The translations under genes and the position numbers were made by a program. The notes under the pieces were generated by a model. It saw only the letters and a list, made by a program, of their open reading frames with translations. It did not search any database and had not been told where the DNA came from. A DNA stretch of 61,116 nt, counting the filler. It is 5 parts of 5 records of this genome, joined end to end, with 100 filler letters (N's around TTAATTAATTAA, not from the genome) between each part and the next. Parts side by side here need not be neighbours in the genome. Positions count along the whole stretch, not along the records: positions 27,544 to 37,692 come from SRR20825010_4713; 4 more parts are not named here. The stretch is one strand, 5' to 3'. This document shows positions 30,275 through 37,692 of this stretch, one piece after another (the stretch's first letter is position 1; the number at the start of each line of letters is the position of its first letter).

Positions 30275-31993
30275 ATGAATTCATCCCAAGAAGCCTCACC
30301 CCTTCTTAAAACAGCGCGAGAGCTAGCTCAACCCTGGCTTGTCGCATTGCTCGCATTCAGTGCAGCAATCAACCTTCTGGCATTGACACCCAGCATTTAC
30401 ATGATGCAGGTTTATGACCGGGTGTTAACCAGCCAAAGCCACACCACCCTGTTGGCGTTAACCGCATTAATTATTGGCATGTACGTGCTTGCAGCCACAC
30501 TGGAGCACCACCGAGCCGCCACCCTGACACGAATTGGAAACACCCTTGAACAACAATTCATCGCCAGGCTGCACACTGCCGCCTTTCAACGCGCATTAAA
30601 AACCCAGGGTAAAGACAACACCGGGCAAGCCATTCGCGATTTCACGGTGATTCGTCAATTCATGACCAGCCAGGGTGCAGTTGCCTTGTTCGACACACCC
30701 TGGGTGTTGTTTTATGTCGCACTGCTGTTTGCATTTCACCCTTTGTTCGGCGTGATGGCACTGTGCTGCGTCGCGGTGTCGATCGCATTAAGCTGCTTGC
30801 ACCTGCGCAGCACCCGTCCACACGAGGAACAAAGCAACTCAGTGGGAATTCTGAGCGCAAACACCATGAATTCCACCCTGCAACATGCAAACTCCATTCA
30901 AGCCATGGGCATGCTGCCCACCATTCAAACAGAATGGTTGAACATTCAAAATCGACAAACCAGCCATCAGACCGGGGCTGCCGATGCCTCCTCCATATGG
31001 ACCAACAGCAGCAAATACTTCCGCATGTTTGTTCAAAGCGCAGCACTTGGGCTTGGTGCGTACTTGGTACTGAACCAATCACTGAGCGGCGGAATGATGA
31101 TCGCCGCCTCCATTTTAATGGGCAAGGCGCTAGCCCCGGTCGACATGCTGGCCAGCGCGGGCAAAGCATTGACAGGCGCGCGCCAGGCGCATGAACGCTT
31201 GAAGCGGCTGCTCAACAGCAACCCGCCAGCCCATGAATTAACCGATTTACCTACGCCCAAACCCGGTATTGAATGCCGTCAGGTTTACGTGGCAGCGCCA
31301 TTGTCCGGGCAATGGCTTTTAAAAAACATTCAGCTACAAGTACCTGCTGGCAGCACGGTGGGCGTGATCGGCCCCAGTGGATCCGGTAAAACCAGCCTGC
31401 TTCATGCACTGGCAGGCATACTGCCAGTGGCGCAGGGTCGTCTCGAAATTGACGGGGCAGACATTGCGCAATACCCGCGCAGCCAATTGGGCGCATGGAC
31501 CGGTTACCTGGCGCAGCATGTCGAACTGTTTGAAGGCACGGTTGCACAAAACATTGGCCGCTTTGAGCGCGACAATGATCAAGCCATTGTGGAAGCCGCA
31601 ATGGCTGCGGGCGTACACCAGCTTGTACTGAAATTATCCAAAGGCTACGACACACCACTGGGCGCACAAGGCGAAGGCCTTTCAGGCGGCATGCGGCAAC
31701 GCATAGGCCTTGCCCGCGCCTTGTACAAAAACCCGCAACTGTTGCTGCTGGATGAACCCAATGCCCACCTTGACGAAGCGGGAGAAGCAGCGCTGGCCAA
31801 AGCTATTTTGCACCATCAACAACAAGGCAAAACGGCAATTCTGGTGACCCACAAAAAATCGATTCTGCGGGTTTGCAGCAAACTGCTGGTTCTTCACGAG
31901 GGTGAAGTGTCCGTGTACGGAAACACACCCGAAGTACTTGCACACCTGCAACAACAAAACCCCACGCAGCTGACCAGGGTAAAACATGCATAA
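30275..31993 (+). CDS. Type I secretion ABC permease/ATPase, PrtD/AprD-type (no C39-like domain seen; start uncertain)
   Basis: YMMQVYDRVL, FDTPW, MIAASILMG, GPSGSGKT, LSGGMRQRIGLARA, LDEPN. Confidence 0.93.
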   Translation: MNSSQEASPLLKTARELAQPWLVALLAFSAAINLLALTPSIYMMQVYDRVLTSQSHTTLLALTALIIGMYVLAATLEHHRAATLTRIGNTLEQQFIARLHTAAFQRALKTQGKDNTGQAIRDFTVIRQFMTSQGAVALFDTPWVLFYVALLFAFHPLFGVMALCCVAVSIALSCLHLRSTRPHEEQSNSVGILSANTMNSTLQHANSIQAMGMLPTIQTEWLNIQNRQTSHQTGAADASSIWTNSSKYFRMFVQSAALGLGAYLVLNQSLSGGMMIAASILMGKALAPVDMLASAGKALTGARQAHERLKRLLNSNPPAHELTDLPTPKPGIECRQVYVAAPLSGQWLLKNIQLQVPAGSTVGVIGPSGSGKTSLLHALAGILPVAQGRLEIDGADIAQYPRSQLGAWTGYLAQHVELFEGTVAQNIGRFERDNDQAIVEAAMAAGVHQLVLKLSKGYDTPLGAQGEGLSGGMRQRIGLARALYKNPQLLLLDEPNAHLDEAGEAALAKAILHHQQQGKTAILVTHKKSILRVCSKLLVLHEGEVSVYGNTPEVLAHLQQQNPTQLTRVKHA

Positions 31994-35301: not shown

Positions 35302-37692
35302 CTATTAAAAACGTTCTAAATCAAGCAAATCTAACCCCTTCACAGTATAAGAACGCATCAAAAGCGGCTGATACTTTAACAAACTTACATCTTGCGCCAG
35401 TTGACGTAGCTGCTGCAGCTCAAGGACTGAAGGAAGCAAATTCTGTCAATGATGCGGTTGGGGCAGGCATTAGTGCAGCACAGGCAGCGACTTCACTTTT
35501 CATCGCAGTTGCACGAGATGTTCCAGTAATTTCAACCGTTTTGAACTTTGGAAGCTTAACAAATAGCTTATCTCAGCTAAAAAAAGAATATGATGGGGGA
35601 TCGATAACAGTTAGTACAGCCGCTTCAGTGCTTGGTGATCTCGCCGCAATTGGCGCTGGTATTGCTGCCGCTGCTGTTGGTGGACCAGCAGGTATTGCAT
35701 TGGGAATTGGTATCAGTGTAATTTCTGCAGGGCTTACTATAGTGTCTATTGCACCCTCGTTAAAAGACGATCTTGCATATCAAAGAAAACTCTCGGAGCT
35801 CCAACCACTTTCTGATAATTATCAGACACCAGGCTTATCTGGTTATATTTCTGACACTTTCAACCTCGACTTCCACACAGCAGCAGCAACCCGCCCCCCT
35901 GTCCTCAGAGACCCATTAGCGATCGACTTGGACGGCGACGGCATCGAAACTGTTGGCATCGGCGCGCCTCCAATCCTTTTTGACAGCAACGCCGATGGCA
36001 TCAGCACTGCCACAGGTTGGGTTGCACCGAATGATGGCTGGCTAGTGCTTGACCGCAACGGGAACGGCACGATTGATTCCGGCCGAGAGCTGTTTGGTGT
36101 AGACACCTTGCTTTCCGGCACCCCGGGCGTGGACGCGATTTACGCGAAAACCGGCTTTGAGGCGCTGACCACACTGGACTCCAACGCAGATAGCAAGTTC
36201 AGCGCTGGCGATGCCACTTTCACAGAAGTGCGTGTTTGGCAAGACCTCAACCAAGACGGAATGAGCCAAAACAACGAACTGTTCACGCTGGCTCAAAAAA
36301 ACATTGCCAGCATTTCGCTCATACCAACACGTACAAGCATCAACTTGGGCAATGGCAATGTGGTAAGTGCCACAGCAGTAGTTACTCGCACAAATGGTAG
36401 CACCACCCTAGCCGAAACTGTGGGAGTAACCACAGACACCACCGCAGCCAATCTCGACCTGAGCAGCAACCCTTTCTACCGAAGTTTCACCACCCCTGTG
36501 ATGTGGAATGAAACCGCCCAAGCCTTGCCAGAAATGCGTGGCTCGGGTTGGGTGCGCGACTTGCGCGAAGCCATGAGCCTTGGTACGGCTGAATCCGCGG
36601 CGCTCACTACACAAGTACAGGCCTTTGCTACCGCCAACACGAGAGATGCGCAAACAGCGCTGTTAGATGATCTGATACGCCTTTGGGCCGCAACCAATCA
36701 AACTCAAGCTCTACCATCGGCACACGATACTCACCGCCGATTTGTGGTGAGTGGAGATGCCTCAACTTCGGCCATGCTGCAAGCCGCAATACCAGTACTG
36801 GAAGTGTTCAACGGAATGAACGTGAACGATGCAGGCATGCAAGTCCCACGCACCCGCACCGGTGCAGATGGACAAACCGTCCTCATTTACAATATTTTCA
36901 ATGACCAAGCGCGCATTATGCTCAAAGCATACAACGAGCTTCTTGAGAGTGTGTATTCAAGCTTGGTGATGCAGACACGACTTGAGCCTTACCTCGATGC
37001 GATTAATATGGTGGTCGGTGACACCGGCATTGAGTTTGATCTGGCCCAACTCAACCTAGCACTTGAATCAGCAAAAACCAATGATCCTCGTTCGGCAATG
37101 ATTGATTTGGTTGAACTCGTCAAATATCAGAACCCCACGCTGAAGTCGGTTGGATTTGATGGGATTGGAACCCTGAGAACATGGATAGACCAATTGGATG
37201 CCAACTCAACTCTGTGGGCAGACTTGGCTGAACTTGGGATAATAATTGGCGATATCAGCACAGGCACCAACCGTGATGACATCTATCTGGGTAACGCTAA
37301 TAACAATACCTTCCACGCAGGACAGGGCAACGACATAATCGACGGAGGCCAAGGGTTTGAAACACTCTACGCTGGCGACGGCGATGATGTTGTAAGTGGG
37401 GGAGCTGGCAACGACGCCGTCTACGGCGATGCAGGCAACGACATACTGGATGGCGGTGCGGGCAACGATTCCCTGAGCGGTGGCGCTGGGGCAGATACCT
37501 ACGTTTTTGGCAAAGGCTCAGGCGCTGACATTGTTTACAACAACGACAACGATGTTGCGGGCACCAACGCCGACACCATTCAGTTGGGTGCGGGCATTGC
37601 CACAACTGACATCACACTGACCCGCAATTCCGATGCGCTTGTCATCCGCATCAACGGCACCGATGACAGCATGACGGTGCAAAGCTACTTCA
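35298..37692 (+). CDS. RTX protein with FrpC-like self-processing module (3'-truncated)
   Basis: D205-P206 in RDPLAIDLDGDGIET, TGWV, DRNGNG.ID.G.ELFG, RVWQDLNQDG; GGxGxD nonapeptide repeats; hemolysin-type Ca-binding-related domain at the contig end. Confidence 0.9.
37290..37530 (+). repeat. RTX Ca2+-binding nonapeptide repeats (coding)
   Basis: AGQGNDIID GGQGFETLY AGDGDDVVS GGAGNDAVY GDAGNDILD GGAGNDSLS GGAGADTYV. Confidence 0.92.

Follow-up and report, generated by a model that had tools for sequence, protein, structure and literature searches.

What is a secreted protein for when it carries a self-cutting module behind a hydrophobic N-terminal domain, and when the gene just upstream encodes a small membrane protein? 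The question is raised by one contig (record SRR20825010_4713, positions 27544-37692) of the window, the whole stretch of 61,116 nucleotides of DNA that we analyzed. On this contig, a gene for a repeats-in-toxin (RTX) protein begins at 35298, behind genes of a type I secretion system (T1SS) as well as the gene for the small protein P0002. We consider, with moderate confidence, that the locus encodes a T1SS polymorphic toxin and its cognate immunity protein, that is, an FrpC-like RTX protein with an exchangeable N-terminal head and P0002 as the immunity partner encoded upstream. A preliminary description of the DNA had proposed a polymorphic toxin with an upstream partner, and the proposal gains support from a test of co-variation among homologous loci and from the recurrence of the pair at two further loci, L015 and L080.

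The RTX open reading frame (ORF) runs for 798 residues before the contig end at 37692 cuts it, so the C-terminal secretion signal is unseen. To judge from the relatives P0127 and P0054, the part cut off may be as short as 20-90 residues. By sequence comparison, residues 206-371 are an FrpC-type self-processing module (SPM), predicted to cleave the preceding Asp-Pro bond in a Ca2+-dependent manner. The preliminary description had placed D205-P206 at the opening of such a module, and the alignment to the FrpC structure 6sjw agrees, with the Asp-Pro in register: Pro206 is aligned to FrpC Pro415, the first residue of that chain, and the alignment to 6sjx (query residues 205-371) also includes Asp205. 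The match covers positions 1-162 of the 179 in the 6sjw chain, leaving the final ∼15 residues (the D579/L580 strand) outside; identity between the two SPMs is 55-60%. FrpC W451 and W519, which stack in that protein, correspond to W241 and W314, and FrpC is also described as having EF-hand-like Ca2+ loops (PMC7078468). The corresponding loops DRNGNGTIDSGRE, LDSNADSKFSAGD, and DLNQDGMSQNNE are kept here; FrpC D478 aligns to a Val, with an Asp one position later. Downstream of the SPM and a conserved middle region, the expected RTX repeats are present (PF00353, E 1.4e-15), with GGxGxD at residues 701, 710, 719, and 728 and a partial PF06594 match at residues 781-798.

How much of this architecture is shared by related proteins? 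With residues 206-400 as the query, at least 1504 proteins matched at E<=0.001, and the 120 listed were used. Most of these 120 carry the DP and a DLDGDG-type motif. All of them (P0003-P0122) also carry the precomputed annotation PF26745, which is absent from the Pfam copy that we scanned; it seems that Pfam has only lately gained an entry for the SPM. When the query is added to the 120, an Asp-Pro motif with 90 or more residues ahead of it is present in 78 sequences. The module is matched in 78/78 of this protein set, whereas clustering splits the 78 N-termini into 37 groups, of which 23 have a single member. Retrieval was biased toward the module, so a control was made on an independent genome set and on the middle region, which had no part in retrieval. 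Of 484 confirmed stretches, 80 were kept for this set; from 79 loci, 78 genes were called by script, including the gene at 35298. In 59 of these genes, 440 or more residues follow the Asp-Pro, and we compared these 59 in all 1711 pairs. The module is alike in 1711/1711 pairs by construction and the middle region in 1563, whereas the head, taken without its last 25 residues, is alike in only 45.

The heads also differ in kind. Pfam recognizes Ntox44, Lipase_3, Peptidase_M23, and DUF6973 among them, and there are phospholipase A2-like heads as well; Xylella proteins are among the homologs with M23 or DUF6973 heads. In the Pfam scan, 68 of the 78 heads have no family, and 7 of the 10 with a match have RTX repeats only. 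Heads are joined to the scaffold at a defined place. The homology of other family members to our RTX protein starts at residues 155-205, and an alignment of the 78 heads gives the consensus N-x2-F-x2-A-x4-P-x-R-R-D right before the Pro. As judged from this alignment, the consensus marks the place at which a variable head is attached to the scaffold. VENN and PxxxxDPxGL, the junction motifs of other polymorphic toxins, are analogous.

If the heads are toxins, their upstream genes should change with them. A same-strand ORF of at most 400 amino acids (aa) ends within 110 nt of the start in 61/78 genes, with many overlaps. The upstream genes belong to the same family in 13/69 same-head pairs vs 3/1761 different-head pairs, with a nominal Fisher p of 5e-17 for pairs that are not independent; "different" upstream families are overcounted because remote homologs are missed. 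The partner also matches its head in type. Hydrophobic heads go with upstream proteins that have at least two transmembrane (TM) segments (counts 15, 10, 7, and 29; p 0.0024), and this holds with one gene per head cluster (10, 3, 6, and 15; p 0.012). Where the head is not hydrophobic, the protein encoded before it has in many cases one hydrophobic segment, at its N-terminus, as periplasmic proteins would have. The check that the preliminary description had called for, whether heads and upstream genes vary together over a conserved SPM-to-RTX scaffold, thus came out in favor of the toxin reading. The opposite outcome, an N-terminus and upstream gene that are invariant, was looked for among the homologs and was not seen.

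One of the upstream families points to a tested function. The profile of family A7, three proteins of ∼300 aa, matches one PDB entry, 6pdk (E 6.4e-4). At the level of sequence profiles, this match connects SPM-RTX loci with an effector and immunity protein that have been tested by experiment. The three proteins (L004 1049-1951, L006 6324-7235, and L013 6281-7174) are partners of one head family.

Base composition shows the same boundary. The GC content at third codon positions (GC3) is 0.32 in the P0002 gene and 0.29 in codons 1-205 of the RTX gene; the module (0.60) and the T1SS genes (0.54-0.59) have higher values. The best GC3 change point is codon 185, with 0.25 before it and 0.60 after it, and it coincides with the start of the conserved junction. 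Across the family, GC3 of the head is below that of the scaffold by more than 0.05 in 70/78 genes (median difference -0.23) and above it by more than 0.05 in none; the upstream gene is likewise lower in 53/61. Seen both locally and family-wide, the GC3 break means that head and partner behave as an imported cassette joined just before the Asp-Pro.

The head of our RTX protein belongs to a rare family. An exhaustive HMMER search of 1.84 billion representatives with the 205 residues gave 12 matches at E<=0.001; all start at protein N-termini, and the longer ones run on into the module. The Gly/Ala-rich hydrophobic hairpin that the preliminary description had reported within a 205-aa N-terminal domain lies at residues 105-153. 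In an AlphaFold2 (AF2) model built from 18 sequences, the head is all-helical (pLDDT 68.7, pTM 0.58), and the hairpin consists of helices 105-125 and 130-150 with a turn at VGGP. The hairpin contains overlapping small-x3-small runs of glycine-zipper type, including G128-x3-G132-x3-G136. In the ESM Atlas, the head reaches at most 0.88, which is a lead only. We suggest that the head is membrane active because it has a hairpin of TM length, because its partner is membrane embedded, and because hydrophobic heads and multi-TM partners go together across the family. Our confidence in a pore or depolarization mechanism is lower than in the effector-immunity reading.

An RTX scaffold with an N-terminal hydrophobic segment also brings to mind an anti-eukaryotic or generally membrane-damaging cytolysin, in which the hairpin would be an HlyA-type pore region and P0002 an accessory or export-protection factor. 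A language-model search gave a weak lead in that direction, a cluster of hemolysin A fragments with PF02382 (score 0.84, rank 28), a score that the tool treats as no more than a lead. However, the RTX protein has no PF02382 match at E<=0.01, and there is no HlyC/RtxC-type acyltransferase gene on the contig. The hydrophobic part is a single hairpin, whereas the hydrophobic region of HlyA-type toxins extends over several hundred residues. We consider a cytolysin distinctly improbable.

P0002 has the features expected of a membrane-embedded partner. As the preliminary description had it, a small two-TM gene overlaps the RTX gene: its TGA overlaps the RTX start codon (ATGA). Hydrophobic stretches lie at about residues 22-45 and 124-153. 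The AF2 model (pLDDT 64.9) has helices at these positions and strands in residues 52-113, forming a beta domain of roughly 70 aa with two conserved Cys. The true start is probably M15 (ATG at 34879), because GAGG lies 12 nt upstream and the L080 relative starts at the same place. In the region around P0002, a promoter scan did no better than on shuffled sequence. A word-index search of 5.8 billion proteins (lengths 84-270 aa) found no relatives of P0002, neither Pfam (even at E<=10) nor NCBIfam gave a match, and its profile matched no PDB chain at E<=1. A fold search returned helix-hairpin matches only (Z<=8). In the ESM Atlas, P0002 reaches 0.93 to clusters that are unnamed or auto-named DUF3592 and have no common Pfam family; PF12158 was unconfirmed by Pfam. 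A complex prediction for residues 1-205 with P0002 scored 0.00 without controls and was used neither way.

Does the pair of head and partner recur? The L015 head is 43% identical to ours (E 2e-37), and the ORF that ends at its start codon encodes 169 aa and shares 22% identity with P0002 across 138 residues (E 2e-6 in the pairwise comparison). A metagenome scan with a tighter head alignment gave one locus, L080, where a P0002-like ORF of 141 aa ends 15 nt before the head homolog. The three P0002-type proteins each have a TM helix, a beta domain, and a second TM helix, and they share the invariant residues C80, C85, Y87, W90, R91, G95, and K96. The remote P0002 homologs before the L015 and L080 heads show that the pair recurs: counting our own locus, a P0002-type gene lies upstream in 3/3 loci that have this head and upstream DNA. 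In this three-locus comparison, the partner diverges faster than the head. The L080 gene itself (999-1909) is irregular. Its head homolog shifts frame after about 107 residues, and RTX repeats and a C-terminal tail of the typical kind follow in other frames; the module is absent between head and repeats. Either the gene is deleted or frameshifted, or the assembly is in error.

It is tempting to explain the pair instead by analogy with the published reading of FrpC/FrpD and ApxIVA, which is adhesion (PMC7078468). In this explanation, the freed fragment would be linked through its Asp anhydride to a surface protein of the host or substrate, and the upstream protein would be a receptor on the producer. 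FrpD, encoded just upstream of frpC, does bind the FrpC N-terminus, with a dissociation constant of about 0.2 nM (PMC5233953, PMC3034196, PMC7078468), and the close similarity of the two SPMs also speaks for this explanation. However, P0002 lacks a lipobox and, rather than a surface lipoprotein, is predicted to be an inner-membrane protein with two TM helices; we found in it neither a lipoprotein of the FrpD/Smlt3025 type nor the FrpD-like beta-sheet fold. A receptor role also gives no reason for heads that are peptidoglycan hydrolases, lipases, or nuclease types of polymorphic toxins, for AT-rich cassettes of exchangeable head and partner, or for the pairing of hydrophobic heads with multi-TM partners. 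Moreover, FrpC and FrpD have themselves been proposed to be effector and immunity protein (PMC6759196). We therefore regard adhesion as unlikely for this locus.

How would a polymorphic toxin of this kind work? The scaffold (junction, SPM, middle region, and RTX repeats) would provide export and Ca2+-dependent folding outside the cell, and the head, residues 1 to about 185, would be the payload, a helical domain that hides the TM-length hairpin. At the low Ca2+ of the cytoplasm, the module would stay unfolded and the protein uncut. After export, Ca2+ would fold the module, the Asp205-Pro206 bond would be cleaved, and the head would be freed with a reactive aspartic anhydride at its C terminus, which might anchor it covalently to its target. 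The freed head would then enter the cytoplasmic membrane of a competitor bacterium and dissipate it. P0002, translationally coupled to the RTX gene, would sit in the inner membrane of the producer and neutralize heads that reach sibling cells.

Several points weigh against this account. The weakest links are the route of the freed 20-kDa head across the outer membrane of the target and the assumption that the adjacent T1SS exports the RTX protein. The ABC (ATP-binding cassette) protein here is of the 586-aa PrtD type, while 34 of the 37 measured ABC genes beside family members encode 695-948 aa, and a terminator-like hairpin (34618..34643) may separate the T1SS operon from the toxin pair. Because the ABC type differs and this hairpin intervenes, the T1SS and its supposed substrate are tied by adjacency alone. 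The conservation of the module is by construction, because the loci were retrieved by module similarity. Residues 1-205 have no Pfam match at E<=0.01 and no NCBIfam match, the colicin pore domain included; the head model found nothing in Foldseek at E<=0.001, and fold searches returned only generic four-helix bundles, whose Z of ∼10 is too low to be meaningful for this kind of fold. By sequence, P0002 falls outside every known immunity family.

Finally, the hydrophobic hairpin could equally serve as an anchor. T1SS adhesins of the LapA type have N-terminal retention modules, and by analogy the head might be a retention or anchoring module held in the membrane by its hairpin; Ca2+-triggered cleavage would free a functional C-terminal part, and P0002 would be an unrelated membrane protein. 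An anchor is expected to be conserved, yet no part of the gene varies more or is more foreign in composition than the head. P0002-type genes accompany this head in 3/3 loci with upstream DNA, and Pfam recognizes no effector domain in the C-terminal scaffold within the 798 residues. An anchoring role seems very improbable, and a polymorphic toxin with its immunity protein remains our preferred reading.

As stated in the preliminary description, a full set (ABC, membrane fusion protein, and TolC) precedes the toxin pair (Table 1). The ABC protein matches TIGR01842 at E 1.9e-184 (614 bits; cut-off 510) and the HlyD-family adaptor matches TIGR01843 at E 2.1e-83 (281 bits; cut-off 209). The TolC protein matches Pfam OEP at E 3.7e-36 (125 bits) and scores 117 bits against TIGR01844, under the cut-off of 225. 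The 234-nt spacer between the TolC gene and P0002 is AT rich and holds the terminator-like hairpin, a weak call, as the consensus scan found 1 site vs 0.8 expected. Across the family, ABC homologs occur in the flanks of 42/80 loci and adaptor homologs in 28/80. The ABC genes beside other family members (L001-L079) encode proteins ∼26% identical to the one here, and a TolC homolog is found in 1/80 loci; our locus has a TolC gene of its own.

Table 1. Features of the locus and of the window, with the evidence for each.
Feature	Position	Strand	Evidence
T1SS ABC permease/ATPase, PrtD type, 586 aa, without N-terminal peptidase-like extension	30233..31993	+	TIGR01842, Pfam ABC_tran
T1SS HlyD-family periplasmic adaptor (membrane fusion protein), 430 aa	31986..33278	+	TIGR01843
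TolC-family outer membrane channel, 439 aa	33283..34602	+	Pfam OEP
Terminator-like hairpin with T-run, just 3' of TolC gene	34618..34643	+	Consensus scan
P0002, candidate immunity protein, 154-aa ORF, TM - beta domain - TM	34837..35301	+	Translation, AF2, remote homologs
Variable N-terminal candidate payload, codons 1-185, all-alpha	35298..35852	+	GC3 change point, AF2, HMMER
Gly/Ala-rich hydrophobic helical hairpin, residues 105-153	35610..35756	+	Sequence, Kyte-Doolittle windows at 108 and 130, AF2
Conserved junction before scissile bond, residues 186-205	35853..35912	+	Homology start, consensus, GC3 profile
Asp205-Pro206, predicted scissile bond	35910..35915	+	Alignment to 6sjw / 6sjx
FrpC-type self-processing module, residues 206-371	35913..36410	+	PDB 6sjw E 1.7e-44, 6sjx E 3.1e-44
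Conserved middle region, residues 372-640, between SPM and RTX repeats	36411..37217	+	Alike in 1563/1711 family pairs
RTX nonapeptide block and start of HCBP_related segment	37218..37692	+	PF00353, PF06594, CyaA RTX block alignment
mfd 3' end (TRCF domain)	First gene of contig 27544-37692	+	
Sel1-repeat gene and HAD-family hydrolase gene, 4-nt overlap	28302-30172	+	Between mfd 3' end and T1SS genes
Four spacers	23695-23794, 27444-27543, 37693-37792, 53105-53204		

The window consists of five draft contigs with N44-TTAATTAATTAA-N44 spacers between them. Its GC content varies between 0.36 and 0.64, and more than one organism may have contributed contigs to it. Every gene on the contig that holds the locus is on the + strand. 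G001, the nearest genome compared, has no SPM match, and its similarity to this contig is limited to three short stretches (52-109 bases; four places). The mfd, Sel1, and HAD genes have almost no DNA match in G001, which has 31% of the sampled words of the whole window in common with it. A second truncated RTX gene, considered for contig 23795-27443, was rejected; the contents of that contig are ClpA, ClpS, CspA, and isocitrate dehydrogenase.

Among the homologs, 21/47 complete SPM genes are short (321-794 aa) and have no RTX motif. Examples are the ORFs at L058 (856, 3188, 7554, and 10631), L033 (2649 and 4174), L006 4507, L010 3389, and L020 5363, and there are others. Such genes often stand in tandem beside a full-length gene, and several from different loci have a similar tail of the A-N-D-x2-W-R-R-x-A type. 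They may be spare cassettes, as in contact-dependent inhibition (CDI) and Rhs systems, or a genuine subfamily of secreted proteins without RTX repeats.

What would the toxin reading mean for SPM-RTX proteins in general? It is plausible, if just short of probable in our view, that these proteins overall, including FrpC/FrpD and probably ApxIVA, are a large unrecognized class of T1SS polymorphic toxins with an N-terminal toxin, an upstream immunity gene, and a Ca2+-sensing Asp-Pro release switch. Covalent tethering of the payload to its target may be a further task of the module within such a class. What the clip-and-link module does biologically has been an open question since 2004, and a role as a release device for polymorphic toxins would explain its position after highly diverse N-terminal domains. 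FrpC/FrpD and related "adhesins" would be recast as interbacterial weapons, type I secretion would join the routes that carry exchangeable toxin-immunity cassettes, and a large reservoir of candidate antibacterial domains would be opened. What our locus would contribute to the class is a new family of membrane-active toxins and a new family of two-TM immunity proteins. For the locus itself, the result is a directly testable new candidate pair of membrane toxin and immunity protein.

The closest known relatives are FrpC/FrpA with FrpD in Neisseria meningitidis and ApxIVA in Actinobacillus pleuropneumoniae, which have the Asp-Pro, a homologous SPM, the middle region, and RTX repeats, as here. 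In FrpC/FrpD, the product of the small upstream gene binds the N-terminal domain (PMC3034196, PMC5233953). The differences lie in the cassette and the transporter. Our head is hydrophobic and has 205 aa, whereas that of FrpC has 414 aa and no similarity was detected between them; our upstream protein is a two-TM membrane protein, whereas FrpD is a lipoprotein; and the adjoining ABC transporter is of the PrtD type, unlike those of the FrpC/ApxIVA systems. FrpC and ApxIVA have been treated as adhesion or virulence factors, and the SPM structure paper argues for adhesion (PMC7078468). The RTX review lists FrpC as of unknown function (PMC3034196), and a 2023 article again calls its function unclear (PMC10352306).

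The experimental pair to which family A7 leads is Smlt3024/Smlt3025 of Stenotrophomonas maltophilia. The structure 6pdk is Smlt3025, the immunity protein of the antibacterial X-T4SS effector Smlt3024, and the same 2019 paper reports that Smlt3024 is homologous to the N-termini of RTX proteins and puts forward the hypothesis that FrpC acts as an antibacterial effector of a T1SS, FrpD being the immunity protein (PMC6759196). Smlt3025 has an FrpD-like immunity fold. Smlt3024/Smlt3025 differ from our locus in type IV delivery, in having no SPM, and in their head and immunity families. The doubt in the preliminary description over whether such a system is undescribed was thus partly justified: the idea was floated for FrpC/FrpD in that paper, and no systematic description was found. 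Specifically, literature outside subscription journals and supplements gave no systematic account of SPM-released T1SS polymorphic toxins of reversed polarity.

The logic of the locus resembles that of CDI CdiA-CT/CdiI, Rhs, and MafB (PMC3482391, PMC4436062). These systems also have a conserved scaffold and a hypervariable tip set off by a junction motif; the neighboring immunity gene co-varies with the tip, and the GC content of the cassettes is lower than that of the core. The polarity here is the opposite, with a putative N-terminal toxin and an upstream immunity gene, as would be expected for a C-terminal secretion signal. Unlike these systems, ours would combine T1SS export with a Ca2+-triggered release by Asp-Pro self-cleavage. 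The 2012 survey of polymorphic toxins names RTX proteins just as host-directed toxins (PMC3482391).

A further likeness may be to Caulobacter CdzC/D and to pore-forming colicins paired with membrane immunity proteins, in that a helical domain would shield a hydrophobic hairpin and the partner is in the membrane. Colicin immunity proteins have three or four TM helices, unlike P0002 with its two TM helices and beta domain. Antibacterial activity or annotation is also known for T1SS-exported RTX proteins, namely Rhizobium leguminosarum RzcA and relatives and Xylella fastidiosa XF2407 and XF2759. Their mechanism is stated to be uncharacterized, and the review describes for them neither the logic of head, SPM, and immunity gene nor this head family (PMC3034196). 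In all, neither the module nor RTX bacteriocins nor polymorphic toxins are new in themselves; what is new here is the head family together with its partner family, in a layout that appears to be a widespread yet barely described bacterial weapon system.

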